The notes below the pieces were generated by a model. The model saw only the letters and a list, made by a program, of their open reading frames with translations. It searched no databases and was not told where the DNA came from. This document shows positions 7,426 to 51,061 of a DNA stretch of 64,000 bases, in pieces; positions within the stretch are counted from its first letter, which is position 1, and every line of letters begins with the position of its first letter. A program made the position numbers and the translations under genes. Location of the stretch: positions 1-64,000 of the IMG/VR virus record IMGVR_UViG_2895791493_000001; one strand, 5' to 3'. This stretch comes from a virus. Taxonomy: Duplodnaviria > Caudoviricetes.

Positions 7426-7964
7426 ACCACGTCCCCACCGTCCACCAACTCGCCACCCGCACCCGCCAGATCAACGCCAGCAACGACTGGGGCACCGACT
7501 TCACGCCCGCGCAGATCCCGCAGTTCCTCGCGCTGATCCACAGCGAGATCACCGAGGCGCACCACGAACGCGACCGAGCCAAGCGTGCCCGCGAACTGGG
7601 CGACGTGATCGTCCGTGCCCTTGACCTGTGCGAATTGATTCGCCCCGGCCTGATCGGGAGCCGCCTGACGACACTCGAGCACCACCGACCGGGCCTGCTC
7701 ATGCGTTGGGCAACCCGCCGGCATCGCAGCGTGTACGAGTCGAGCCTGCACGCCCGGACCAGCGCCGCACTGGAAACGTTCCGGAAGGCGCCGGCGGACC
7801 AGATGCCCGGCCAGGTGGTCGTCGATCTGAGCCGCCTGATCTGCGCCGCGAACTTCGTGTTGCTGTGCGAGCAGCCGCGCGGCACGACGCCCACCGACCT
7901 GATCTCCGGAATCCTCGACGCGAACAGCGCACGGGGCAAACGCCATGGCGGTCGCCGATGCTGA
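7422..7964 (+). CDS. MazG-like NTP pyrophosphohydrolase
   Basis: LALIHSEITEA...ELGDVIVRALDL motif. Confidence 0.75.
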   Translation: MNHVPTVHQLATRTRQINASNDWGTDFTPAQIPQFLALIHSEITEAHHERDRAKRARELGDVIVRALDLCELIRPGLIGSRLTTLEHHRPGLLMRWATRRHRSVYESSLHARTSAALETFRKAPADQMPGQVVVDLSRLICAANFVLLCEQPRGTTPTDLISGILDANSARGKRHGGRRC

Positions 7965-33372: not shown

Positions 33373-34458
33373 GTGAAAAAGAAGGACAAGAAGAACCGCA
33401 ATCTGAAGAACAAGGACAAGCCCACCTCACCGCCCGCCGAGTTCGTGGCGCCCGCCCCGCACGTGTGGGTGGAAGTGGACATCGAATGGGACTCCCTGGA
33501 CAAGGCGGCCCGCCGGCGCCTGGTCCTGCAGGCCCTGGAGGACGGGGACATCGACGTGCTGTGGAGTGCGACGCATCACAACCTGCTGCTGTACGGACGC
33601 GGTGGCAGTCACACCAGCCAGCACACCGTGCGCGGGTACCGGACCGGCGTGGCTGCCTTCCTGGCGTTCGCGTTGCCGCTCGGATGGCAGAGGATGACGG
33701 ACCACGACACGGACCTGACGATCGGGTACCTGCGGGCGCTGGAGCGCACCGGCCTGACCCCCGGCACCATCAACGCCCGCCGGTCAGCCGCCCGCGCCCT
33801 GTACCGGGCACTCCGCTGGGCGGGCGTGCTGTTGGCGGATCCGTTTGCGGACACGCCGCGCGTGGCGGACCGCGAGGACCGCTGGGCGAAACGCGAGGCC
33901 TACTCACGGGAGGACATCGCGGCGCTGCTGGCGGTGGCCACGCCGGAGGAGCAGCGCATGATCCTGCTGGGCAGCCACGCGGCGCTGCGGATGTCGGAGA
34001 TGACCAGCCTCACGTGGGACGCCGTGGACCTCGCGAAGAAGGTCATGGTCGTGACCGGCAAGGGAAGGAAAACGGCGCGGGTGCACCTCAGCGGCCCCCT
34101 TCACGCGGCGCTGTCCGCCGTGCCGGCAGGGGAGCGGGAGGGGCACGTGCTGCCGTGGCAGGACCCGAAGACGATCCGGGTGTTGTTGCGGGCCCTGTGC
34201 AGTCTGGCCGGCGTGCAGTACGCCCGGAGGCAGGTGCACGGGCTGCGGCATGCGGCGGCGACCATGCTGCTGGCTCAGACGGGTGACATCTACGTGGTGT
34301 CCCGTCACCTGCGGCACTCGTCGATCAGCAGTACTGAGATCTATGCCAAACTCAGCAGCACCAAGCTCAGCGATGCCCTGGACGCCTGGGACGCCCCCGA
34401 GCCTCCGGAAGACGACGCGCCCGCGACGCCGGACGAAGACGACGAGGCGGCCGACTGA
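33373..34458 (+). CDS. tyrosine recombinase/integrase (XerC/D-like)
   Basis: Catalytic R (ALRMSE), K (GKG), HGLRH, LRH and Y (TEIY). Confidence 0.93.
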   Translation: MKKKDKKNRNLKNKDKPTSPPAEFVAPAPHVWVEVDIEWDSLDKAARRRLVLQALEDGDIDVLWSATHHNLLLYGRGGSHTSQHTVRGYRTGVAAFLAFALPLGWQRMTDHDTDLTIGYLRALERTGLTPGTINARRSAARALYRALRWAGVLLADPFADTPRVADREDRWAKREAYSREDIAALLAVATPEEQRMILLGSHAALRMSEMTSLTWDAVDLAKKVMVVTGKGRKTARVHLSGPLHAALSAVPAGEREGHVLPWQDPKTIRVLLRALCSLAGVQYARRQVHGLRHAAATMLLAQTGDIYVVSRHLRHSSISSTEIYAKLSSTKLSDALDAWDAPEPPEDDAPATPDEDDEAAD

Positions 34459-36235: not shown

Positions 36236-36585
36236 TTCAACCTCCCGGCGGGCACCCAGGCCCGCCCGTTCCAGTACTCGACGGACCAGCTGCGGCCCAC
36301 CCATTCGTTGCGGACGCCGCCGCTCGGGATCTCCCACGCGCCTCGCAGCGGGTAGATCGGCTGGTACGGCCCCTCGGCGTTCAGGACGCTGCGTTTGCGC
36401 GCGCGGACCACGCCCCGGGCCGGGCAGTCCACGGCGGGGCGGATGGCGAGCCGTTCGACGATGCCGAGGGTCGCGGTGCGCTCGACGGTCGCCGCGCAGT
36501 ACGTCGCTGGCGTCGGGAGCCGCTGGGCGATCAGGCCGCCGCTGACGGCGAGGGCCACTCCGGCCAGGACGGTCCGGCCGATCAC
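36232..36585 (-). CDS. exported/membrane-anchored protein in the lysis cassette
   Basis: N-terminal hydrophobic segment; coupled at both ends. Confidence 0.6.
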   Translation of the reverse strand: MIGRTVLAGVALAVSGGLIAQRLPTPATYCAATVERTATLGIVERLAIRPAVDCPARGVVRARKRSVLNAEGPYQPIYPLRGAWEIPSGGVRNEWVGRSWSVEYWNGRAWVPAGRLK

Positions 36586-37055
36586 GCGGTCCGCTGCTGC
36601 ACCCTGGACTGCACGCGGATCACCTCCTGCAGGAGGCTGCAACCCCGGCCGATGCCGAGGCACAGGGCCGCCAGTCCGGCGTAGATGACCAGCAGGTACA
36701 GCGTCAGGTGCCCCAGGGGACTCCCGGCCACCTGCCCCGCCAGGATCTGCCCGCCGAGACAGATGATCAGCAGCGCGACCCCCGCCACGGCGCTGATCAC
36801 GGCTGGCCGCCAACGTTCCAGGCCGCCGTACTCCAGCAGCGCCAGGATGGTGAGGGGCGGGTGCGTGCGCCGGGCTTCCAGGACGACCGCCACGATCCGC
36901 TGGGCGAGCATGGCCAGCAGCGCGATGATCAGCACCCGGTAGATGCTCACCGCCAGGTACGACCACTCCGGATCGGCGATCAACGGCGTGTTCATGAGGG
37001 CGTCCAGGGCTCGGGTGGTGTCGACGAGTGCGGCGTGCCAGGGGCTGTCAGTCAT
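36582..37055 (-). CDS. membrane protein (3 TM)
   Basis: Hydrophobic helices; lysis operon. Confidence 0.7.
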   Translation of the reverse strand: MTDSPWHAALVDTTRALDALMNTPLIADPEWSYLAVSIYRVLIIALLAMLAQRIVAVVLEARRTHPPLTILALLEYGGLERWRPAVISAVAGVALLIICLGGQILAGQVAGSPLGHLTLYLLVIYAGLAALCLGIGRGCSLLQEVIRVQSRVQQRTA

Positions 37056-37371
37056 GAGGGTCTCCTTTGCGCCAGCGGATGGCGAGGGCCAGCAGCAGCC
37101 ACGTGACGGCGACCGCGCCGACCACCCGACCGAACGCGCTCGGATCGGCGGTCCGGGCGGGCAGTTGCAGTAACAGGGCGGCCGCGAGCGCCAGTGAGCC
37201 CCAGCGGATGCCGGGGGCGGGGTGGTGGCGCAGGCGGCGGGCCGTGATGACGCTCACGCCGGTCATGACGACCGTGACGCTCGCGAGAATGACGGGCGGC
37301 CCGATGATCCAGCGGTTCAGGTCCACTGCGGCGATGTACAGCGCGATCAGCAGGTCAAGCACGACCGTCAC
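37048..37371 (-). CDS. membrane protein
   Basis: Hydrophobic; lysis operon. Confidence 0.65.
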   Translation of the reverse strand: MTVVLDLLIALYIAAVDLNRWIIGPPVILASVTVVMTGVSVITARRLRHHPAPGIRWGSLALAAALLLQLPARTADPSAFGRVVGAVAVTWLLLALAIRWRKGDPHD

Positions 37372-37726
37372 CTCCGGGCGGCGCGGACGGGTCCGGCGGG
37401 TCCAGCGGGGCCGGCGGGGGCGCGTCGGGGATGTACTTCTGCACGCCGTACCGCGCGGCGAGCAGGAGCCCGGTCGGGCCGTACGCGAAGCCGACGATGC
37501 ACGCGCCGATGGCCTTGCTCATCACGTCCAGCGCGCCCTGCGACACCCAGTCCAGGCCCCGCTCGACGCCGGCGCCGACGACGAACGTGGCGACCATCTC
37601 CGCGAAGAGCTTGCCGGGCGGGACGCGGCGGGCGCGGGTAACAACCCCGGCCCAGTGAAGAAACGCGGCGCTGAGGCCGCAGCCGATGGTGGTGGCGGCC
37701 TGCAAACCGATCAGTTCAGCGGCCAT
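37355..37726 (-). CDS. holin-like membrane protein
   Basis: SD AGGAGG; 3 TM segments. Confidence 0.65.
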   Translation of the reverse strand: MAAELIGLQAATTIGCGLSAAFLHWAGVVTRARRVPPGKLFAEMVATFVVGAGVERGLDWVSQGALDVMSKAIGACIVGFAYGPTGLLLAARYGVQKYIPDAPPPAPLDPPDPSAPPGGDGRA

Positions 37727-37911
37727 CCAACACCTCCTACGTGCTGTCTACACAACATCTGGTCTCTCCTGGCAGCTTTTTTGCCGCGTGGAGCGCATGA
37801 TTCGAGGCAGGACAGGGGGCGCGATCCCCTGTCCGCTGCTGTTGGTGCCCTGTCCGCTGCTCCTGACGGCCGTGAACCTCGCGCCGGTCAGGGGCAGCGC
37901 GAGGAATGAAG

Positions 37912-37935
37912 AACCCCCGCGCAGCGGCGGGGGTA
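37912..37935 (-). terminator. intrinsic terminator
   Basis: CCCCCGC...GCGGGGG followed by TTCTT on the - strand. Confidence 0.55.
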
Positions 37936-37961
37936 CCGGACTACTCAGGCGGTTCGTGTGT

Positions 37962-38468
37962 TCAGAGGCTGAAGGGGATGTCGTTCGGGTGGGGCGGGGC
38001 AGCGCATCTCGAAGGAGTCGGGTCTTTCCAGCCCAGGGCGCGCAGGCTCTCCCCGCAGGCCCGCAGGTACGCCTGGGCGTACCCTTCAGGCCAGCGTTCG
38101 AGCAACTGGTGCGTGTAAGCGTCATCACTTCGAGGATCCGCGAACACCCGGAGGTACCGGGCCTGCAGGCAGTGCCCGGCCTCGTGCGCTGCCATCCGCG
38201 CCAGTTCCGACCGGACCGCAGTTGGATCGATGTCCACCACGCAGCTCGTGCCGCCCGGCAGCGCATGCGCGTGCCCACTGGGAGCTCGGTAGCGTCCGTC
38301 TGCGTCATACACCGGCCCGCCAAGGGCGCCCGGTTCCGTCCAGCGCCAGGTGATGGCGACCCCGTGCACTTCGGTGGTCCACTGGGCGTTGTCGCGGGGC
38401 GGGGCGGTCACGCTGCAACCAGCGAGGCCCAGGGCGAGTGCGGCGGCGGACAGGATGCGCTTGATCAT
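37962..38468 (-). CDS. lipoprotein with HEXXH zinc-metallopeptidase motif
   Basis: LAG|C lipobox; HEAGH and a downstream E. Confidence 0.75.
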   Translation of the reverse strand: MIKRILSAAALALGLAGCSVTAPPRDNAQWTTEVHGVAITWRWTEPGALGGPVYDADGRYRAPSGHAHALPGGTSCVVDIDPTAVRSELARMAAHEAGHCLQARYLRVFADPRSDDAYTHQLLERWPEGYAQAYLRACGESLRALGWKDPTPSRCAAPPHPNDIPFSL

Positions 38469-38964: not shown

Positions 38965-39876
38965 TCAGTAGTTCAGCCGTTTCAGGGCTCCCACCACAGT
39001 CTGTGCGGCCAGGAGCTGCCCGGCATCGTTCAGGTGGATGCCGTCGAACCGCAGTGCCTCCGGCACCGTATCGTCCGCTGCGGTTCCCACCAGCGCGGCG
39101 CGGACATCCACGAACCGCTCCCCGAATGCTGAGGCCAGAGCGACGTTCGTCCGCTGGATCGCCGCGTGCGCATTCGTACCACGCACCTCGCCGCGTCCGT
39201 TCAGCACGCTCAGCACGATGTACCTCGGCGTTTTCAGCGTGGCGACGATGGCCCGCACATCCTGCACGACCGTGTCCGTCTGCGCGTAATTGTTCCGGCC
39301 CGCCCAGATGATCGTCGTGTGCGTAGGACGCTCCCCCAGCGGTACGGCCAGCGGGTACACGCCTGGGTTGATTGCCGCGCCGGCGGCGGCCCGCTGGAAC
39401 ACGTACGGCTGCGCAGCGTTCAGGCTGCCGTCCGGGTTGTGGTTGCTGTGCACGAGCGTCCCAGTCACCCCGCCCACCGTGACCGTCAGGCGGCGGTCGT
39501 TGCCCGCCCCGTCGAGCAGGCGGACGGACGGGATAACCTCCACGCTGCCGCTCTGCGGGAGGCCGCCAGGGGCCGCGACCGTGACGGGCAGCGCGCCCAC
39601 GCGGGCCGCAATGGCGGTGCTGGTCGTGCCGCCCTGAGCGTCCACCACGACCGTCCGTCCGGTGAGCGTCCGCACGTGCGTGTAGATCCGGGTGGCCTCG
39701 CTGGTTGCGCCCGCGCCGATGGTCAGGCTGTCCCCGATCATCCAGATCGGGCTGGGCGCGACGACGGGCACAGGGGCAGGAGTGGGTACGGGGGCGGAAA
39801 CAGGTGCAGGCGCAGGGGTGACGCTGCCCGCGCAGGAGGCGAGCAGCAGGGTCAGGACGGGGAGAAGGCGGGCCAT
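38965..39876 (-). CDS. SGNH/GDSL hydrolase lipoprotein
   Basis: LLAS|C lipobox, Pro-rich linker, GDSL, GRNN, DGIH. Confidence 0.88.
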   Translation of the reverse strand: MARLLPVLTLLLASCAGSVTPAPAPVSAPVPTPAPVPVVAPSPIWMIGDSLTIGAGATSEATRIYTHVRTLTGRTVVVDAQGGTTSTAIAARVGALPVTVAAPGGLPQSGSVEVIPSVRLLDGAGNDRRLTVTVGGVTGTLVHSNHNPDGSLNAAQPYVFQRAAAGAAINPGVYPLAVPLGERPTHTTIIWAGRNNYAQTDTVVQDVRAIVATLKTPRYIVLSVLNGRGEVRGTNAHAAIQRTNVALASAFGERFVDVRAALVGTAADDTVPEALRFDGIHLNDAGQLLAAQTVVGALKRLNY

Positions 39877-40790: not shown

Positions 40791-42638
40791 CTATACACCG
40801 TCCTGTGTGAATCGGGTTTTGATGACCTGCGCCTCGGCCTGCCGTCCAGCGGCGTTCGGGTGCAGCTGGTCACCGCGCAGACTGGCGGGGATCAGGTCGT
40901 CCGTGGTGTTGGCGGCCAGGGCGCTGCGCCAGTCGATCAGGCGGTAGCGGCTGCCCAGGTAGTCGTTCAGGGCGAGGATGTTGACGTACATGGTGTTCGG
41001 GGCGTCGGTCTTGTGCTCCTGGGCGTAATCGCCGTTCGGAATACTCAGGAGGTAGACCCGGCCCGCCACGCCCCGGAGTTGCAGCGTCACGGCGTCCACG
41101 TCGGCCCGGACCGTCGTCGGGTCGGTGTAGTTGTTCCGGCCCATGCTGATGAGCACGAGTTTGTCCCGGTAGGGGGTCAGGTCCGGCACCCACAGGTCAC
41201 CATTGCTGTTCATGGTCGTGGCGCCGCCTGCCGCTACGCTGCGCGTGAACGTGTAGGCGACGGTGTAGATGCCCGCGCTGGGACTCGTGGTGGTGGCGCT
41301 CAGCGTGCCGTACACCCCGCCCAGCCACCCGGCGCGGCTGACCGGCGTGCCCAGGCCCGCGCGGGAGATCAACAGCGACGGCCCGCGCAGCAGGGTGATG
41401 GGCGCAGCGGTGACCGTGGCGGGCAGTGAGCCTCCATTCACGGTGAACCAGACGTTCGCCGCGCCCAGCCGCGCTGCGATCTCTGTACTGGTCTGCCCGC
41501 CGATGCCGTACCCGGCGCAGGTGCGGCCTGTGGCGGTGGCGATCTCTGCGGCCAGCGAGGACGTGCCGAGGCTGTCGCCGTCTACCACCACGTCCGCCAG
41601 GGGTACGTTCCGGACGCCGTTCACTCGCGCCCGCCCATCGCTGTCGAGCGTGTACCCACCGGGCAACAGCGTGTTCCCGACGTTTGGCGCAACCACTCCC
41701 CCTGGGGCGATCAGTGCGCCGTCCGTGCTGAGGGCCAGCAGCACCCGGCCTGTCTGATCCTGCACGAGAGGCGCGGCAATCTGAGCGCCATTCAGGTACA
41801 GCACATCCGGAGTGGCTGGGACGCGCAGGCCCGTCGTGCTGAGCGTGGTGATCGTCGCAGCGGCGAGGCTCAGCGCCTGCGAAAGCGTGAGGGTGATCCC
41901 GGCGAGATCATTGGCGTGCATCCCACCGGCCGCATCCCACCACACGAGAGGCCGCCCGGCGCTGTCGAGCCACGCCGCGATGACCTCAACGCCGCCGATG
42001 AACACGCCGGACGGGTACGTCACCCCACGAAACGGAGCGAGCCGCGCTTCCGTGGCAGCCGCCGTCGTGTCGTTCACATCCTGCCGGGCGTCATTCGCCT
42101 CCTGCTGCTGCGCGGTATCAGCGATGATATCGGCCACCGCCTGGCGCTCCGCCGACAGATCCAGAATGGCGTCGTTCACCCGTCCAGCGGCGGTGTTCGC
42201 CGCGGCCGCTGCCTGCTCTGCGTCGGCGGTCAGGGCCTGCAGACTGGCGGTCGTGGTGTACGCCTCCGGATCCTGATCGCGGGTCAGATCGAGCGTCCCA
42301 TCTTCGCCAGCAGCGGGCCGGAAGCGCAGCTGCTCGCTCTGGCGGCGCCCTGCCTCGTCCGTCCAGGTCAGGTCGATGTACAGCCAGCCCTGCGGCTTCG
42401 CGGCGGCGAGCACGTCGCCGCGCGCCAGGGGCAGTTCCAGCGGTCCGTCTGTGTTCGAGTTCTTCCAGCCGCTGCTGGCGGTGTCCCACTCGAAGGGGAT
42501 GCTGCCGATGCCCGCGCCGACGGGGCCGCCCAGGTAGGGGCCGTCGAAGGTCGCCTGTCCGCGCAGCGTGGCGAGGTTCGTGATCGTGGCCGGGACGCCC
42601 ACCACGGGAGTGAGCGTCGGGGTGCTGGGTTGGGTCAT
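40791..42638 (-). CDS. tail spike/receptor-binding protein with C-terminal SGNH esterase
   Basis: Putative N-terminal attachment region + coiled coil; GDSL, GRNN, DQLH. Confidence 0.8.
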   Translation of the reverse strand: MTQPSTPTLTPVVGVPATITNLATLRGQATFDGPYLGGPVGAGIGSIPFEWDTASSGWKNSNTDGPLELPLARGDVLAAAKPQGWLYIDLTWTDEAGRRQSEQLRFRPAAGEDGTLDLTRDQDPEAYTTTASLQALTADAEQAAAAANTAAGRVNDAILDLSAERQAVADIIADTAQQQEANDARQDVNDTTAAATEARLAPFRGVTYPSGVFIGGVEVIAAWLDSAGRPLVWWDAAGGMHANDLAGITLTLSQALSLAAATITTLSTTGLRVPATPDVLYLNGAQIAAPLVQDQTGRVLLALSTDGALIAPGGVVAPNVGNTLLPGGYTLDSDGRARVNGVRNVPLADVVVDGDSLGTSSLAAEIATATGRTCAGYGIGGQTSTEIAARLGAANVWFTVNGGSLPATVTAAPITLLRGPSLLISRAGLGTPVSRAGWLGGVYGTLSATTTSPSAGIYTVAYTFTRSVAAGGATTMNSNGDLWVPDLTPYRDKLVLISMGRNNYTDPTTVRADVDAVTLQLRGVAGRVYLLSIPNGDYAQEHKTDAPNTMYVNILALNDYLGSRYRLIDWRSALAANTTDDLIPASLRGDQLHPNAAGRQAEAQVIKTRFTQDGV

Positions 42639-42646
42639 GGATCTCC

Positions 42647-43078
42647 TCAGATGGGGTACAGGTCAGTGCTGTCGTCGTCGTCAACGAGGTGCCAGTAGGG
42701 GTCGCGCAGGGCGAGGGTGACGGTCAGGAGGCGCGTGGTGCCGCCCCGGTAGTCCTGCACGCGCGGCTCCCCGATCAGGCCCTGCGTGATCAGGTACCGC
42801 TCCGGGTGGCGCCGCCGGTCCCGGAAGCCCGTGGCGGCCCGCAGCAGACTCAGGACGCGTCCGCTCTCGCGGTCGCAGGCGCGGACCGTGACGGCGCTGA
42901 TGTACACGCGCAACGTCAACCGGGTTTCCTTCGGGCTGCCCAGGCCGTCCACCCAGCTCAGCCCGTACGGCGTGCGGTCCTGCGTCAGGTCGCTCGACCA
43001 GGTCGGCTGGTCGTAATCCACCACCGCCGGCAGCCGCTCCCCCCACCCGGCGTTGTCGGTGCGGACTTCGAACGTCAC
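42647..43078 (-). CDS. minor tail protein (Dit-like)
   Basis: Position; C-terminal DPYW. Confidence 0.55.
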   Translation of the reverse strand: MTFEVRTDNAGWGERLPAVVDYDQPTWSSDLTQDRTPYGLSWVDGLGSPKETRLTLRVYISAVTVRACDRESGRVLSLLRAATGFRDRRRHPERYLITQGLIGEPRVQDYRGGTTRLLTVTLALRDPYWHLVDDDDSTDLYPI

Positions 43079-44682
43079 ATCGGACCTCGCGTGTTCACGG
43101 CCTGCGAGACCGCCTGCTGGTCCTGGCGGTCCACCACGACCTTCAGCACCTGAGCGTCATACGATTCGTCCGGCTGGCCGATCATGTACTCCGTTCGCAT
43201 CGGCTCGCGGATCAGGTACCGGACCCCCACGACCTTCTCCGTGATGTCCGCGCGGCCGGGGCGCTGGACGGTCAGCGTGCCGGGTTGATCCTGGATGCCC
43301 GACACGCTGGCGATCCCCACGTGCTGGCTGGGCACCCTGTAGAGCTGTTCTGCGCTGGCGTCAAGCAACTCCCGGTCCAGGCGCTTGGCAATCAGCTCCG
43401 TCGCAGTCCCGGCAGTGTCGCCCGAGATGTTCCACAGGTCGAAACGCCGGTATCCGGCACTGACGACCAGTTCCTGCCAGTAGTTGGTGCGGATCACGGT
43501 GTCGCCGCCGCCCAGGAAGTCGTTCCCCAGGTAGGTGTCATCCAGGTCGTAGAAGTCCATCTGCAGCGTGCCGGGCGCGGAGATGACTCCCGCCCATTCC
43601 AGCCAGTCCGCGTCCATGGCGGTCGTGTACGTCAGGTGGCTGCCGTTCAGCGGTACGCCGCCAGTGGTGGCCGAGTCGCGCAGTTTAGTAATTTCGCTCT
43701 CGCTCAGCGGGGTGGCCGTCCCGCCTGGAGGCGTGAGCGTGTATGTCCCGCCGAGCACCTGCACGACACTGGGAGCGCTCCGTTGATCGATGTACCGCGT
43801 GACGCTGCTGCGGCCCAGTTCCGCGATGCGCGGGTGCTGGCTCTCGTACACGATCTCGCGGGGCGCGATGCGGGACGGGTCGCGGGGGTCGCCTGGCAGT
43901 CGCCAGATCCACCGGACGGCGGTCAGCAGCCCCTCGCTGACGACCTCCTTCAACTGGATGCGCACGCCGGTCATGGCGGCGTTCACCGTAACGACGTTTG
44001 ATGGCGGTGGCCCGATCCACACGCGGTCGTCCGCGCGGACGGTCCAGCCCCATCCGCTTTTCAGGGCCAGGAGGCCGTCGAGTGCGGCCGCGACACTCTC
44101 CCCGTTGTGCTGCCGCTGCCCCAGCACCCCCGAGTCCGGCAGGCTGGTTGCGGTGTAGGTGAGGTGTGGCAGGTCGGCGCGCGCGTCGTCGATCACTCCG
44201 CGCATCTGCTCGCTGATCTCAGTGCCGAAGTTGATGTAGTTCACGCGCGTGACCGGGATCTCTTTGAGTCGGAGGTACTTGTCGCCCACCGCTTCCCACT
44301 GCCCGTTGAGTTCGTCGGGGCGCCGGGTCAGGGTGCCGCTGAACACGGTGCGCCAGTCTCCTGGGGTCGCCGTGTCGGCCACGTCGACCCAGACGCGAGC
44401 GCGGTCGCGGTCCGGGCCGGTGAGGCCCTGCCAGGTGACGTCCTTGCATCCTCCCCACTCGTCGAGCGTGATGGTGAGTCCCGCGCTGGCCACCTGCGCC
44501 TGCGTGGCGGTGATGGTGTCGAGGGGGGCGCTGGTGGCCGGGTGGCCGAATCGGAATCTCCACATGGTGACGGCCTCCTGGGTAGGTGTGACCTGCCAGT
44601 CGTGACCGGCGGGCGGGGTGGGGTGCGGCGCGCAGGCCGCCAGGATGACGGCCAGCAGCGCCAGCAGGAATCGTTGGATCAT
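43075..44682 (-). CDS. baseplate hub/tail protein with in-frame N-terminal lipoprotein leader (second start at 44565)
   Basis: Follows the tape measure; LAA|C lipobox; two SD-equipped ATGs. Confidence 0.7.
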   Translation of the reverse strand: MIQRFLLALLAVILAACAPHPTPPAGHDWQVTPTQEAVTMWRFRFGHPATSAPLDTITATQAQVASAGLTITLDEWGGCKDVTWQGLTGPDRDRARVWVDVADTATPGDWRTVFSGTLTRRPDELNGQWEAVGDKYLRLKEIPVTRVNYINFGTEISEQMRGVIDDARADLPHLTYTATSLPDSGVLGQRQHNGESVAAALDGLLALKSGWGWTVRADDRVWIGPPPSNVVTVNAAMTGVRIQLKEVVSEGLLTAVRWIWRLPGDPRDPSRIAPREIVYESQHPRIAELGRSSVTRYIDQRSAPSVVQVLGGTYTLTPPGGTATPLSESEITKLRDSATTGGVPLNGSHLTYTTAMDADWLEWAGVISAPGTLQMDFYDLDDTYLGNDFLGGGDTVIRTNYWQELVVSAGYRRFDLWNISGDTAGTATELIAKRLDRELLDASAEQLYRVPSQHVGIASVSGIQDQPGTLTVQRPGRADITEKVVGVRYLIREPMRTEYMIGQPDESYDAQVLKVVVDRQDQQAVSQAVNTRGPM

Positions 44683-47600
44683 CGGAAGGCTCCTCGGTAG
44701 TTGCCGCTGCTGTCGATCAGGGGGATGCCGTCGCGCATCAGGCGTTCGAGCGCGTCGATGTGTCGGGTCAGGACCTCGCCGTGCCTGGTCAGGATCACCT
44801 CGTGCCGCATGTACATGGCGTCGATGCGGGTGACGGTGGCGTCGAACAGGTCGATCTTGCTGCTGTTCGCCACGATGAACGTCGCGCCGGTGACGGGGCT
44901 GCTGGCGGCATTGGCGGCGGTGCCGCCGTCCTCCGCTCCGGCGCCGTACCCCTCGAGTCCGCTGAGGGCGTCCTGGGCGGTTCCGGTCACGGCCTTGATT
45001 TCGGCGCGCAGGTCCGCCATCTCGCTGTCGCCGGATTCCCCTCGAGCCCGCGCTTCCGCGTAGGCCTTGCTGAGGGCCGCGACCTTGCTCTGCGCCAGGA
45101 TGCCCTGGATCACGAGGCGGGCCGCGAACTGGTTCAGGCCCCGCTCGATCTTCTCGCTGACCTTGCTGAAGTCCCCCATGTCGAACCCTTCCAGGAGGCT
45201 GGATTCGAAGGTGTTCCCCAGCTCGCTGCCAAGCTGATCGAAGATCGTGGCGGCCTTGATCTTGAATTTCGCGGTCGCTTCGTCCAGCATCTTCGGCCCG
45301 CCGCCCGTGATCCCCCACCACGCCCGCTGGTACCACTTGCTGTTCGCCATCTGGTCCCGCGCGTTCGCGTCCGCCTGCAGGTCCTTGTAGTACGGGTTCT
45401 CCAGCCACCCGTTGTACTTGGCCTGCCCGGCCGCCTCGCGTTGCAGCTTGGCGACTTCGGCGAGGTCCTTCTTCCAGGCCTTCATGTCGGGGCTGAGATT
45501 CTCGAACGCGTCCCCGATGTTCATCAGCCATTCGACTGTGGTCATGGCCATCCCGACGAAGTCGCCGGCGAGGAACTGCCCGAACGCCTCGACGCCCAGC
45601 TGCGCGTTCTTCACGAGGTACCCGATGACGTTGCCGTCGTCCCCCTCGGTGAACTTCCCAAGGATGGCGCCGGCCTTGTTGATGTAGCCGTTCAGGGACT
45701 GGAGTTCCTGCTGCTGCAACTGCTCGCGACTGGCGACCCCGTCGGCGGCGGCCTGGGTGCGGGCGTTCTCCAGGCGTTGCTGCGCGGCCCTGTACGCGGG
45801 AGTGCCTTCGACGAGACCTTCGATCTCACGTTCGAAGGTCCGCTGCGCCCCTTCCACCGTGAGGCGTTCGCGTTCGTTGATGTACTGGCGTTCGCTGATC
45901 AGGCGCTGGGCGCGCCGCTGCTCCAGCCCCTGGGCCGCACCGTCGGCCACGGCGTCCTCCAGGTCACGGGTGCCCTTCACGGTGTCATCCACGAGGGAGA
46001 GCAGTCGTTTGGCCGTCTCGTCTCCCGCGTCGGCCAGCACCTGCAGCTCGGCGCGGACTGCTGCCAGACCAGCGCGGAACCCGTCCATGCCCATCTCTCC
46101 GGCCGCGAACCCGTCCATCAGGGCGGTGAGGGTCTCCACGGCCGGCGTGCGCGCTTCGTCCATCGCGGCGATTTCCTGCCCCGCCTGATGGAATTCACGC
46201 CACCCGGCCGTGATGGCCTGGATCTGGTCCGGTTCGAGTCCGCTGGCGGTCAGCAGGGCGTTCAGTTCGTCCCACGGGAGGGTCAGGACGTTCTGAATGG
46301 CGTTCTCCAGGTCGAAGTAACTTTCGGCGGCGTCCTCGGCGGGCACGCCGATGCCGCGGACTTCCGCGTCGGTGGGGAACGCCTCGGTGGTGGTGGCGTT
46401 CCCGTCGGCGTCGATGCCCTGGCGTTGGCTCATCGCGCCGCTGGCCAGCAGCCCGTCCGTGATGGCGTTCGCCTGGTCGTTCAGGTACTCGCGCATCAAC
46501 TTCACTAGCGGCGTCTCGCCGGTTCCGCTGGGGTCAAGTTCGTCGAGGATGGCCTGCACTTCCGCGAGGTTCAGGGCGTCCATGCGGTCCCGCAGGGACT
46601 GCGCCTCGGCGTCCGTGAGGTTCCCGGTGGCCGGGTCGTCCGGATCCAGGGACGCCACGTCCGGCACGCCCCGCCCCTGCAGGTTGTCCGGCAGTTGCGG
46701 GCCGGTGTCGATGCTGTCGTAGATGGCGTCCCACGCCGCCTGGAGGCGTTCGGCCTCGTCGGCCGCTAGGCCGGACTGCTGGATCAGGTCGGCGAGTTCG
46801 GAGCGGCTGAACTGCCCGACCACGTCGATCGCGGCGCCCAGGTCGTAGTAGCTGTCGGCGGCGTCCTCTGCGGCGACGCCGATGCCGCGCACCTCCTCCT
46901 CGGTCTTGTACAGCAGCTCCCCGGTGTTGGGGTCGACGATCGCGCCCCCGTTGGTGAGCATCCCCATCCGGAACGTCGCCTCTTCGGCCGCGCCGACCAG
47001 CCCCCAGACGCTCTTACGGGCGCCCGTGATGTACTGGTCGGTGTCCAGCCCGGCGACTTTCGCGGCGCGGCCCAGCGCGTTGAATTCCTTCACGGCCTTC
47101 TGGCGAGCCTCGGCGTCGAACGTGCCCGCCTCGGCCTGCTGACGGATGCTGTCCGCCAGCTGCGAGTACTGGCCGCGCAGGTCCCGCACGGCCTGCGCCT
47201 CCTTCTCGCGGGCCTGGGTGGTGGTCTGGGTGCGGGCGCCGCCCGCTTCGAGGACAGCCTGATCGTAGGCGCGGTTCGCGGCGGCTTCCCGTCCGGGCCG
47301 CAGCTGGGCTTCCCCGTTGCGGGCGTCGGCCAGGGCCTTGTCGCGCGTGGCGGCCGCCACCCGGATCCGGGCGGCTTCCTCGTCGCGCGCCTGCCGCTCG
47401 ATCAGGGCCAGGCGCTGGGCGCTCGTGCCCTTGAACACCGCGAGTTCCTGCTGGTTCAGTTCGCGGGTGCGGGCGAGCGCGTCGGCGGCCTGCTGAATGC
47501 TCATCTGCCGGAGTTCGTTGGCGATCCGGGCGCGCAGCGCGGCCTGTTCCTCCGCTCGGCGCTTGGCCTCCGCCGCAGCTCGCTCGGCGTCGCGATCAGC

Positions 47601-50600
47601 CTGTTCGGCGTCACGTTCGGCCTCTTGGGCTGCCTGCTTGCGGCTCTGGTACGCGGCGCCTTCCACCTGCAGCACGCCCGCCTTGGCCTTGCTCTCGCCC
47701 TGCCAGGCCTTCACGGCGTTGTCGGCCGCCAGGATGCGGGCCGCGTTGCCGCTGGCCTGCGCGGCCTCCTGGTCCTTGAGGAGTCGCAGGGCCTGCGCGC
47801 CGTGCCGGTTCAGGTCGGCCTGCGTGACGATGTAGTCCTCGGAGGTTTTTTTTAGGGTGCTCTGCGCGGCGTTGACGGCCGTGAGGGCACGGGCGTTGGT
47901 GTCGGACTTCTCGCCCCAGTCCTTGGCTTTCTCCTTCGCGCTGTCGAGGGCCTTGATCAGGGCGACGTTCTTGGGGTCGGCGTTGAGGGCCTTCTGGGCC
48001 TTGTCGATGGCGGCATTCAGGGCCTGGGCCTGGGCGATCTGAGCGGCAGTCAGGCCAGCGTACGCGGCAGCGGGCGGCGGGACCCCGGCCGGGGCTTTCT
48101 CGGTACCCAGCACCTGCGGGACGCTGACGAACCCGGCGACGGTGCCGAGGCTGCTCATCTTCTCGGTGCTGACGACGCCGCGACCGTTCTGCACGCCCCA
48201 CTGGTTGTTGCCGCGCACCATGTCCACGCCGTTCTGTTTCCCGACGTAGATCCCGATGTGGTTGTCGTCGTAGATGACGACGTCGCCGGGTTTGAGTTTG
48301 CTCATGTCGCGGTTCAGGACGCCTGACGCGATGGCCTTGTTCTTGACGACGTCGGCGGACGCGCCGCCGAACAGCTTCTCGATTTCCTTGCTGGCGGCCG
48401 GGTCGGCCTTCTGCAAGGTGAGCTTCACCCAGCGGGCGCACCAGCCGGCCACGGTGTCCGCGACGTTGTTGCCGGTCTTACCGAGGAGGGCCTGTCCGAC
48501 AATGTCGCTCCGCAAGCCCTCCAGGGTGCCGGTGGCGATGGGCGTTCCTGTCGCAGGCGCGAGGGGTCCGGTAGGATTCTTGATGCCAGCCTGGAAGCGT
48601 GCGTCGTTCTCAAGAGCGAGCTTGAGCCACTCCGCGTAGTTCCGCTCGATGTCCTTTCGCTGGGCGAGGGCGCCGCCGGGCGTGTTCGGCGTTTCGATCA
48701 GCCCGCCGCGCTGAAGGGACTGCTGCAGCGCGGACACGTTCATCTGCTGGCCTATAGCCATGCCGCCCGCGATGGGCATGCCGAGCAGGCTCAGGATGTT
48801 CCCGGTGGCGTTGTCTCCGGGGGTGAACAGGACACTGAGTTTCACGGTCCCGGTCTCTTTCATCTGCTGGAGCTTCTCGAACAGGGTTCCGAGATCCTTG
48901 AGCAGCGGGGTCATGGTGTTCGTCAGGAAGCTGGCCAGGGGGTCCGCGAAGGTCTTCACGAACTCGCCGCCGGCTTCTGCGAACGCGTTCTTCACGCGAT
49001 TCATGGCGGGCGCGACGCCCTGCTGCATGGTTTCGCTGTACTCGATCAGGTACCCGTTGCTGTCCTGGACCTGCGCGCCGTACTTCTTCCAGTCGCCGGT
49101 CAGGTTGATCACGGCGGCCGCGGCGCGGTTGTCCATCAGACTGCTGACGGTGCGCAGGGCCTCGCCGTTTCCGGAGAGGGTGCCGGTGGTCTTGTCGACC
49201 ACGATGCCCATGCCGCGCATCTTCACGCCGAGGTCGATCATGATGTCACCGGCCGGGCGGGCCTTCCCAGCGGCGTCATCAATGTCAATTCCGAGGCCTT
49301 TCAGAACACCCTGGCCCTTGAGTGTGATGTCGGCCAGGGCGGAGAGCGCGGCGCGCAGGCCGTTGGCGCCCACGTCGGCGGCGGACATGCCCTTGTTGTC
49401 GAGTTCGACCAGCATGCCGAGCAGGTCGTACATCTCGATTTTCGCCTGGTAACCGGTGCCGCCGACGATGCCCAGGCCGATGCTGAGGTCGTTGGCCGTG
49501 CCGGCGGCGAGGTTGCCGGACTTCGCGAGCATATCGCCCACGCGGGCGGCCTCGCCGATGTCCTTGCTGTACTGGCGGATGTTCTTCAACAGCAGGCCGC
49601 TGGCGTCGTTCAGGCCGATCTGTTCTGCGGCGGCAAGGCGGCTGCTGCTGGCCATCAGTGTCAGCGCGGAGTCCGCGTCGACGCCCGCTTTGATGGTGTC
49701 AGCGAGGCTGTTGACCAGGTCCCCGCGACTGAACGATTCTCCGACGAGGCCGAGCTTCTCCTGGAGGCTCTTGACGCTGTCCTCAATGGCTCCAAGGTCC
49801 TTGACGCCGTTGGCCTGGAGGATGTTGAGGCCCTGCTGGAGTTTCTTGATCTCGCCCATGCCGGTGGCGCCCAGGGCGACGAGCGCACCGCCCGCCATGA
49901 GACCGGCCGCGCCGACCCCGGCCATGGCGAGCGCAGCGGGTCCGGCGGTCGCCTGGATGGACCGGAACATGGCGACCATGGCGGCGCCCTGGGCGACGAT
50001 CATCCCGAACTGCCCGCCCAGCGCACTGAAGCTGTTCACGACGCCGCCGCTGAGGCCAGCGTGGTTGATGTTGCCGTTGATGGTGTTCGCCTCGCGCGCC
50101 AGGCGCTGGAGTTCGCGGTTGACCTGCCCGAGCTGCTGCACGGTGAGCTCGCTACTGGAGCGGATGGCCTGGAGGCGCGCGATGATCGTGGCGGACGCGG
50201 CGCTGTACGTGGCCTGCGCGGCGTTGAACGCGGCGCTGTTGCGGTCGACGCCAGCGGTGGCCTGGTCGAACGCGGCGCGCATGGCTCCGGCGTCGGTCCG
50301 GATTCGCTGCAGGGTGTCGGTGTTGATGCTGCGCAGGCTGCGGGTGATGCGGGTGATCCCGGCGTCCGCCTGCGCGAACTCGCGCGTGCCGACGCCAGCG
50401 GCGGCCGCTGCGGCCTGAAGGCGGGTCTGCACGGCGGTCAGCTCACGGGCGTAGTCGGCCGCGTTGATCTGGCCTCGCGTCCAGAGGTTGTTCAGGCGCT
50501 CCAGTTCCGCGAGGTCGGCGCGGGTGGCCGGGTTGAGCCCTCCGCTGCCGCCCGCTCCGCCACCGCCGGGCGGAGTAGGACCAGGACCGGGGCGTGGGCC

Positions 50601-51032
50601 GGCGCCGAGCGCGCGCAGCTGGCTGATCAGGGATTGCAGGGCGAGGATGTTGGTGTGGATGTCGCTGTTCAGGGCGCTGAGGGCCGTGGTGTTCACGGTG
50701 ACCACGTACTGGGTGTTCGTGCCGATGCTGCCCAGCAGGGCCCGCAGGGTGTTGACGTCGTTCTGCACCTGCGCCTGGTCCGCGACCTTGACCTTCAGGT
50801 TCACGGTGCGGCTGCTCAGGCGCCGGAGCTCCTGGTCAAGCGCGGCCGTGTCGAATCTCAGGCGGACGGTGGCGGTCTTGTCACGCAGGTTGCCCAGCAC
50901 GTCGCCGTTCCGTTTGATCTGGTCCTGCACGCGCAGGAGGTCGGTCAGGCTCCGCTGGAATCGCTCCAGGCCGGCCACGCCGGTGCTGCGGGCGGCGAGG
51001 GTGTACGTGACGGTGCGGGTCGCTGCGGTCAA
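44679..51032 (-). CDS. tail tape measure protein with internal CHAP/NlpC-P60 domain
   Basis: ~2100 aa, Ala-rich, TP901-like core; WCARWV...PGDVVIY..HIGIY...GNN; TTG start after GGAGG. Confidence 0.92.
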   Translation of the reverse strand: MTAATRTVTYTLAARSTGVAGLERFQRSLTDLLRVQDQIKRNGDVLGNLRDKTATVRLRFDTAALDQELRRLSSRTVNLKVKVADQAQVQNDVNTLRALLGSIGTNTQYVVTVNTTALSALNSDIHTNILALQSLISQLRALGAGPRPGPGPTPPGGGGAGGSGGLNPATRADLAELERLNNLWTRGQINAADYARELTAVQTRLQAAAAAAGVGTREFAQADAGITRITRSLRSINTDTLQRIRTDAGAMRAAFDQATAGVDRNSAAFNAAQATYSAASATIIARLQAIRSSSELTVQQLGQVNRELQRLAREANTINGNINHAGLSGGVVNSFSALGGQFGMIVAQGAAMVAMFRSIQATAGPAALAMAGVGAAGLMAGGALVALGATGMGEIKKLQQGLNILQANGVKDLGAIEDSVKSLQEKLGLVGESFSRGDLVNSLADTIKAGVDADSALTLMASSSRLAAAEQIGLNDASGLLLKNIRQYSKDIGEAARVGDMLAKSGNLAAGTANDLSIGLGIVGGTGYQAKIEMYDLLGMLVELDNKGMSAADVGANGLRAALSALADITLKGQGVLKGLGIDIDDAAGKARPAGDIMIDLGVKMRGMGIVVDKTTGTLSGNGEALRTVSSLMDNRAAAAVINLTGDWKKYGAQVQDSNGYLIEYSETMQQGVAPAMNRVKNAFAEAGGEFVKTFADPLASFLTNTMTPLLKDLGTLFEKLQQMKETGTVKLSVLFTPGDNATGNILSLLGMPIAGGMAIGQQMNVSALQQSLQRGGLIETPNTPGGALAQRKDIERNYAEWLKLALENDARFQAGIKNPTGPLAPATGTPIATGTLEGLRSDIVGQALLGKTGNNVADTVAGWCARWVKLTLQKADPAASKEIEKLFGGASADVVKNKAIASGVLNRDMSKLKPGDVVIYDDNHIGIYVGKQNGVDMVRGNNQWGVQNGRGVVSTEKMSSLGTVAGFVSVPQVLGTEKAPAGVPPPAAAYAGLTAAQIAQAQALNAAIDKAQKALNADPKNVALIKALDSAKEKAKDWGEKSDTNARALTAVNAAQSTLKKTSEDYIVTQADLNRHGAQALRLLKDQEAAQASGNAARILAADNAVKAWQGESKAKAGVLQVEGAAYQSRKQAAQEAERDAEQADRDAERAAAEAKRRAEEQAALRARIANELRQMSIQQAADALARTRELNQQELAVFKGTSAQRLALIERQARDEEAARIRVAAATRDKALADARNGEAQLRPGREAAANRAYDQAVLEAGGARTQTTTQAREKEAQAVRDLRGQYSQLADSIRQQAEAGTFDAEARQKAVKEFNALGRAAKVAGLDTDQYITGARKSVWGLVGAAEEATFRMGMLTNGGAIVDPNTGELLYKTEEEVRGIGVAAEDAADSYYDLGAAIDVVGQFSRSELADLIQQSGLAADEAERLQAAWDAIYDSIDTGPQLPDNLQGRGVPDVASLDPDDPATGNLTDAEAQSLRDRMDALNLAEVQAILDELDPSGTGETPLVKLMREYLNDQANAITDGLLASGAMSQRQGIDADGNATTTEAFPTDAEVRGIGVPAEDAAESYFDLENAIQNVLTLPWDELNALLTASGLEPDQIQAITAGWREFHQAGQEIAAMDEARTPAVETLTALMDGFAAGEMGMDGFRAGLAAVRAELQVLADAGDETAKRLLSLVDDTVKGTRDLEDAVADGAAQGLEQRRAQRLISERQYINERERLTVEGAQRTFEREIEGLVEGTPAYRAAQQRLENARTQAAADGVASREQLQQQELQSLNGYINKAGAILGKFTEGDDGNVIGYLVKNAQLGVEAFGQFLAGDFVGMAMTTVEWLMNIGDAFENLSPDMKAWKKDLAEVAKLQREAAGQAKYNGWLENPYYKDLQADANARDQMANSKWYQRAWWGITGGGPKMLDEATAKFKIKAATIFDQLGSELGNTFESSLLEGFDMGDFSKVSEKIERGLNQFAARLVIQGILAQSKVAALSKAYAEARARGESGDSEMADLRAEIKAVTGTAQDALSGLEGYGAGAEDGGTAANAASSPVTGATFIVANSSKIDLFDATVTRIDAMYMRHEVILTRHGEVLTRHIDALERLMRDGIPLIDSSGNYRGAFR

Positions 51033-51061
51033 GTGGAGGCCACCTCCTCGGTGGTGCATGG

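Follow-up and report, generated by a model that had tools for sequence, protein, structure and literature searches.

The gene that directly follows the tape measure gene in a Deinococcus prophage raises the question of whether one tail protein can be made in two forms, one for the virion and one for the host envelope. The stretch analysed, hereafter the window, comprises positions 1 to 64,000 (64,000 nt) of IMG/VR record IMGVR_UViG_2895791493_000001 and holds a temperate siphophage-like prophage of a Deinococcus. The gene in question, called the hub gene here after the tail hub to which it is assigned, has two in-frame start codons, and the upstream one adds a leader that resembles a lipoprotein signal. 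A conserved signal for export and lipidation would not be expected on a core tail protein, because virion proteins are assembled in the cytoplasm. Our analysis of the window and its relatives indicates that the hub gene probably makes two real products, a short form read from the internal start and a long form that carries the leader.

Two in-frame start codons in the hub gene

The hub reading frame runs from 44682 to 43075 on the minus strand and encodes 535 residues when read from the upstream ATG (44682-44680). This codon shares bases with the TGA stop (44681-44679) that ends the tape measure gene (44679-51059, minus strand; 2126 aa in the list of open reading frames; Pfam PhageMin_Tail, E 4e-23), and the resulting ATGA (44679-44682) would couple the long form to the end of tape measure translation. 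A GAGGAG Shine-Dalgarno sequence (44690-44695, minus strand) stands 7 nt before the upstream ATG, within the last tape measure codons. Beyond 44682 the frame is open merely as an arginine-rich off-frame of the tape measure gene, and 44682 is therefore the outermost sensible start. The second ATG (44565-44563) lies in frame 39 codons downstream and has its own AGGAGG Shine-Dalgarno sequence (44574-44579, minus strand) 8 nt ahead of it; no further in-frame ATG, GTG or TTG occurs between the two starts. A preliminary description of this DNA had named both start codons, each with its Shine-Dalgarno sequence, and the coupling of the first to the tape measure stop, and all of this was borne out when the sequence was re-read.

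The residues of the long form fall into a putative lipoprotein signal peptide (residues 1-17, 44632-44682, minus strand) with the lipobox L-A-A-C and the codon of Cys17 at 44634-44632, a proline-rich tether that is predicted to be disordered (residues 18-39, 44566-44631, minus strand), and the hub core of 496 aa (43075-44565, minus strand), which is read from the internal ATG and is the presumed virion form. The stop of the hub gene at 43075 overlaps the GTG of the next gene. Either start could be abolished by single-base changes that leave the tape measure protein as it is.

Unmasking of the internal Shine-Dalgarno sequence by translation of the leader was dropped as a candidate, as RNA folding of the junction revealed no unusual structure (z = -0.07). 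A frameshift fusion of the tape measure and hub proteins was ruled out as well: stops in the hub frame occur 4-10 codons before the leader start in three of the related loci described below (L009, L010 and L012), a slippery site is not visible, and an internal lipobox could not work.

Conservation of the leader and of the internal start

Forty-six loci were compared at the DNA level: 12 from metagenome assemblies with close homologs, 2 from remote relatives, 1 from GTDB genomes, 1 from IMG/VR and 30 from Deinococcaceae genomes, the last obtained by a profile search of 125 genomes that found a family member in 41. The loci were aligned by anchoring on a conserved tryptophan that follows the internal start. 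The leader was present in 14 loci, namely the window, L003, L005, L006, L008-L015, L017 and L022, and in each of these it was in frame with the core, contained a lipobox and ran into the core with no intervening stop codon. Leader lengths ranged from 108 to 129 nt and differed solely by multiples of three. The leader start formed the ATGA overlap with the tape measure stop across the leader-bearing loci, apart from L017, where the overlap was TTGA, and L014 and L015, where the start lay 1-2 nt after the stop. Eight further metagenomic proteins, down to about 20 % identity, displayed the same plan at the protein level, a signal with a positive n-region, a hydrophobic core and a lipobox cysteine ahead of a short proline-containing tether, and most of them had an aromatic-x-hydrophobic-Thr/Ser-Pro motif and a methionine or valine right before the core; one of the eight was binned to a cyanobacterial metagenome-assembled genome.

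The internal start was equally well kept. All 14 leader-bearing loci had an ATG or GTG one or two codons ahead of the anchor tryptophan, with GGAGG or AGGAG 4-8 nt upstream, and this included two loci of about 50 % GC (L014 and L015). The residues encoded by the Shine-Dalgarno stretch vary between clades while the stretch itself is kept, and the conservation is therefore at the nucleotide level. As a base rate, 5 of 328 internal in-frame ATG or GTG codons (1.5 %), and 0 of 101 ATG codons, had GGAGG or AGGAG ending 3-9 nt upstream across 14 coding regions of the window. On this comparative evidence selection acts on the internal start in its own right, at the level of nucleotides. One gene with two functional starts, as the preliminary description had proposed, is thus what the comparison supports, locus by locus at the DNA level, through the in-frame lipobox leader and the retained internal start with its Shine-Dalgarno sequence.

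About 28 loci had no leader and started at the internal methionine position, mostly behind GGAGG. They included L001, L004 and L024 of the window's own clade and about 25 more distant Deinococcaceae loci. In L007 (D. arenicola) the leader was decayed, with the lipobox and tether kept, the start codon and N-terminal part lost, and the internal start intact. The preliminary description had held that stops between the two starts in homologs, or homologs without the leader, would speak against its proposal. The former were found in no homolog, and the leader was open and free of stops in the 14 loci and the eight metagenomic proteins; the latter do exist, in the three loci of the window's clade and in most distant clades. 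This shows the leader to be accessory and the short form to be apparently sufficient for the virion, and is not proof that the leader is meaningless. The short form, which coincides with the start of the leaderless relatives and with the start of the predicted fold, is presumed to be the virion hub.

The leader of L017 is unusual in its start. The TTG that overlaps the tape measure stop is the sole possible leader start there, and an ATC behind GGAGG is situated within the tape measure gene, farther upstream. The L017 protein is identical to Deinococcus peraridilitoris protein P0020, for which NCBI annotates the internal GTG start. More generally, the leader goes unseen in several database entries, since gene callers and NCBI differ from case to case in which of the two starts they assign to this gene.

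A predicted lipoprotein signal on the long form

The leaders were examined by script with a PROSITE-type lipoprotein rule, which looks for a positively charged n-region, a hydrophobic core and a lipobox of the form [LVI][ASTVI][GAS]C with the cysteine at about position 15-35. The window leader, whose first 17 residues comprise Arg4, a 12-residue hydrophobic core and the lipobox ending in Cys17, conformed to the rule, as did the leaders of 12 of the 13 other leader-bearing loci. Alignments of the tether revealed a conserved aromatic-x-hydrophobic-Thr-Pro motif directly ahead of the internal Shine-Dalgarno sequence, and the tether itself is the usual lipoprotein spacer between a lipid anchor and a folded domain. 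A search for signal peptidase II (PF01252) was positive in two of three Deinococcus genomes and in D. radiodurans, the control; on this genomic evidence the host Deinococcus is equipped with signal peptidase II for lipoprotein processing. The long form should be exported and lipidated, given that the signal is canonical and the lipobox cysteine is invariant over deep divergence.

A hydrophobic N-terminus on a tail protein could also serve in the particle itself. Tail-tip and tape measure proteins of siphophages frequently have membrane-inserting segments, and the leader is linked in translation to the tape measure gene. On this reading the long form would be a virion component whose uncleaved N-terminus sits in the tail tip and inserts in the host membrane at DNA ejection. 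This would leave the invariant lipobox cysteine and the conserved internal Shine-Dalgarno sequence and start unexplained. Such a signal peptide would moreover direct the nascent protein out of the cytoplasm, and the leaderless relatives make functional-looking hubs. We therefore regard a structural role of the leader in the virion as highly improbable.

Identity of the hub protein

The preliminary description had assigned the gene to a baseplate hub, and this is supported by its predicted structure. An AlphaFold model built on 44 relatives had a mean pLDDT of 84, with residues 2-16 as a helix, residues 20-33 disordered (pLDDT <50) and the first beta strand beginning exactly at Met40, the residue encoded by the internal start. 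Foldseek against the PDB returned hub-type matches at probability 1.0 and E values of 1e-9 to 1e-5, and the TM-scores were moderate, at 0.36-0.47 for the query and at most 0.64 for the target. These comprised the tail hub of the Haloferax virus HFTV1 (9h4p), the Neisseria and Listeria prophage tail proteins 3d37 and 3gs9, Mu gp44 (1wru, 9ki1), T4 gp27 (1k28), lactococcal p2 ORF16 (2wzp) and 80alpha Tal (6v8i), together with hubs of contractile injection systems and VgrG. Matches in BFVD, likewise at probability 1.0, were to tail, endopeptidase-tail and minor tail proteins. The gene also lies directly after the tape measure gene, an order that was the same in all related loci with context.

Sequence profiles did not place the protein: no PHROG matched, and the sole Pfam match, DUF6349, was below cut-off. 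By modelled fold and gene position, and not by sequence family, the product is a gp27/Tal-type tail hub, a class with tube-like beta-barrel domains of the kind known from gp27, gp44 and the N-terminus of Tal. The closest protein to the window hub was from Deinococcus sp. 12RED42, at 94 % identity. A tblastn search of phage GenBank records gave no match, and IMG/VR scans with P0025 and P0018 found nothing.

Evolutionary history of the leader

A maximum-likelihood tree of 75 family members, made with a quick search and weak at its deep nodes, requires at least six gains or losses to account for the presence of the leader. Members with the leader were spread over at least four distinct regions of the tree, and no member of three large Deinococcus clades had it. 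Absence or decay of the leader in close relatives means that its function is therefore an accessory one, and by this comparison the leader is an old, dispensable accessory module that has apparently been lost repeatedly.

Sequence identity across the junction points to the same modularity. The window and L010/L011 were about 95 % identical through the 3' end of the tape measure gene and the leader, and then only 55-65 % identical from the internal start onwards, so that the internal start acts as the edge of a module. The same leader serves hub cores that are 46 % identical. A contig of run X12, from another organism with a related prophage, had a diverged hub core of similar length between a retained tape measure end and leader on one side and a retained downstream gene on the other. 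In these comparisons (positions 43078-44565 of the window against L010/L011, and the X12 contig) the hub core behaves as a swappable cassette, with flanks, including the 143-aa gene downstream, that are about 95 % identical.

A module of this kind could be no more than a leftover. The leader might be what is left, after fusion, of a lipoprotein moron that had inserted or of a recombination module, with an upstream start that is used little or not at all and a long form that is a functionless, tolerated by-product. In favour of this, most of the family has no leader, and that of L007, and possibly that of L017, has decayed; the dN/dS of the leader is near 1 in close pairs; the mosaic junction at the internal start is of the kind expected at a gene boundary; and gene callers and NCBI picked the internal start in several homologs. 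However, a useless leader should gain frameshifts or stops or lose its lipobox, yet it is intact in the 14 loci and the eight proteins, with an invariant cysteine, on cores down to about 20 % identity. The tether motif is conserved as well. Word-index searches of limited reach detected neither a free-standing small protein with this leader nor the leader on any protein family other than the hub. The suggestion in the preliminary description that a tiny lipoprotein gene had lost its stop codon is thus left unsupported, no such free-standing protein having been found, and we consider it unlikely that the leader is a remnant.

Proposed mechanism and role

The two products would arise as follows. 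Ribosomes that bind at the internal AGGAGG and start at ATG 44565 would make the 496-residue cytoplasmic hub, which would assemble with the tape measure protein at the tail tip, a step that is well supported. Ribosomes that finish the tape measure gene would restart at the overlapping ATG 44682 and make the long form, with its 17-residue lipoprotein signal and 22-residue flexible tether. With its start coupled to the tape measure stop, the long form would appear whenever the tape measure protein is produced, late in infection. It would then be exported by Sec, lipidated by Lgt at Cys17, cleaved by signal peptidase II and held on an envelope membrane, away from virion assembly. We infer this pathway of export and lipidation from the features of the sequence and their conservation.

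The long form would on this account be an accessory fitness factor and not a part of assembly. The role we favour among those possible is that of an envelope-anchored copy of the tail tip that would hinder later infections, either by capturing the incoming tape measure protein or tail tip or by masking the entry site. The effect would be that superinfecting relatives are excluded, or that progeny are kept from being wasted on infected cells and debris. We judge two isoforms with an accessory envelope role of some kind to be moderately probable. The narrower proposal of an exclusion or decoy role, taken on the premise that both products exist, is tentative, and we place it slightly on the doubtful side of an even balance.

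Several observations weigh against this account. The long form would require the efficient export of a 496-residue, presumably trimer-forming protein. It is encoded in a late operon, and a scan for a sigma-70-like promoter upstream of it, crude for Deinococcus, found none; expression in the lysogen, which classical exclusion needs, is not indicated. Many family members do without the leader. Pairwise dN/dS of the leader was 0.6-1.0 in close pairs, a value of low power that is based on very few changes in a 39-codon leader; it therefore suggests constraint on the general character of the leader and not on specific residues. The leader of L017 is weak, with a TTG-only start, an 11-residue signal and no charged n-region, and may be non-functional. 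Lastly, Llp, Cor and Ltp, the phage exclusion lipoproteins discussed below, are not similar to the hub, for which the Pfam and PHROG scans yielded neither such a family nor any other accepted match.

Neighbouring genes

Downstream of the hub the gene order is a 143-aa gene, a 615-aa fibre-like gene, a lectin-like protein, a 303-aa SGNH lipoprotein, and a 168-aa lipoprotein with small membrane proteins. The first of these (42647-43078, minus strand) begins with the GTG that overlaps the hub stop and is conserved in related loci, most of which have a gene of 139-143 aa after the hub. The 615-aa fibre-like tail protein (40791-42638, minus strand; PHROG 11419, tail fibre) has a C-terminal SGNH esterase domain, matched by Pfam Lipase_GDSL_2 below the curated cut-off. 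The 303-aa SGNH esterase (38965-39876, minus strand; PHROG 11419, E 1e-35) has a lipoprotein signal of its own at the N-terminus, with the lipobox L-A-S-C.

The preliminary description had drawn a parallel between the hub and this SGNH lipoprotein, and the parallel gains substance from the relationship of the two esterases: the lipoprotein is a separate paralogue of the fibre SGNH domain, at 35 % identity (E 1e-19) over fibre residues 354-606. One copy of the pair is virion-borne and the other is predicted to be envelope-anchored, which suggests receptor modification from the cell side. A lipoprotein paralogue of the fibre esterase would fit the same strategy as that proposed for the long form of the hub.

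Further along the minus strand, at 36582-38468, a 168-aa protein with the lipobox L-A-G-C precedes three small proteins that have hydrophobic stretches and one protein of 302 aa; none of them has a Pfam match. This region may be a lysis cassette with the lipoprotein as a spanin-like part. It bears on a further alternative, in which the lipoprotein hub acts in lysis or egress: a protein made for breaching the envelope from without, anchored there late in infection, would help to disrupt the Deinococcus outer membrane or wall layers from the inside in the manner of a spanin or disruptin. The late-operon position of the leader and its translational coupling to the tape measure gene would suit such a role, as would the failure to find a promoter for lysogenic expression. 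The Deinococcus envelope is complex, and the homologous tape measure proteins bear wall peptidase domains, the upstream genes in related loci having PhageMin_Tail together with a peptidase M23 or M15 domain. However, a candidate lysis cassette, made up of the 168-aa lipoprotein and small membrane proteins, already exists in the phage, close relatives whose genomes are similar manage without the leader, and the hub model has no enzymatic or membrane-active domain. A lytic function of the long form is accordingly quite improbable in our estimation.

A capsid gene is present in the window. A tyrosine integrase gene (33373-34458, plus strand; Phage_integrase, E 1.5e-17) is oriented in the direction opposite to that of the structural genes; it marks the temperate nature of the phage and probably one end of the prophage. 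Among the related loci, the hub homologs of four Deinococcaceae (L031, L034, L037 and L038) have one or two in-frame TAG or TGA stops within the match and probably belong to decaying prophages. Two other loci contain apparent morons: in L011 a Wzy_C (O-antigen polymerase-like) gene after the fibre gene (7451-7638), and in L015 a HicA toxin pair that is encoded ahead of the tape measure gene, on the other strand (1361-2019).

Relation to known systems

The short isoform is the counterpart of the gp27-like N-terminal domain of hub/Tal proteins (T4 gp27, Mu gp44, p2 ORF16, 80alpha Tal, Listeria gp18 (3gs9) and HFTV1), with which it shares the fold and the position after the tape measure gene, but it differs in having no match to a Pfam or PHROG hub-family profile. 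To our knowledge, no solved hub has a signal peptide or a second upstream start.

For the long form, the working model is provided by the superinfection-exclusion lipoproteins Llp of T5, Cor of phi80, N15 and T1, and Ltp of Streptococcus phage TP-J34, which reside in the envelope and are encoded in or beside tail and receptor-binding genes (PMC9586334, PMC3952083). The target of Ltp is the incoming tape measure protein, and the effects of Llp are to mask the receptor and to spare progeny (PMC9586334, PMC3952083). The likeness is one of proposed action and not of family membership. These are small dedicated proteins with their own genes and early or prophage expression, whereas here a whole tail hub would be supplied by a late-operon virion gene.

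The use of one frame with two starts, each with a ribosome-binding site, to make two products with different roles is familiar from other phage genes, such as the lambda S107/S105 holin-antiholin, T7 gp4A/4B and the internal-start isoforms of endolysins (PMC9430671, PMC12203907). In those cases both products share a compartment or membrane, whereas the lipoprotein export signal described here would split the products across the cytoplasmic membrane. Full-text literature searches found no lipoprotein or signal-peptide tail hub and no dual-localized phage isoforms, and returned only exclusion lipoproteins, signal-peptide endolysins and endolysin isoforms. The hub, the lipoprotein signal and the dual-start logic are each known; their combination was not found described for a phage tail protein.

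Biological significance

Should the long form exist, a single late gene would supply two compartments, and a copy of the phage entry device would be placed in the host envelope. This would represent a new route to superinfection exclusion or to the protection of progeny, and a new class of dual-localized bacterial isoforms. A broader notion is that some phages build exclusion or decoy factors from their own tail tip, with an optional lipoprotein leader, inserted after the tape measure stop and ahead of the ribosome-binding site of the hub itself, turning part of the hub output into an envelope-anchored copy, and that, with the SGNH paralogue, the anchoring of their own entry machinery is a general strategy; this is speculative, and we think it rather doubtful that it holds at such breadth. 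If it were true, such anchoring would be a recurring feature of the hub family, which occurs in about one third of Deinococcaceae genomes as well as in other bacteria.

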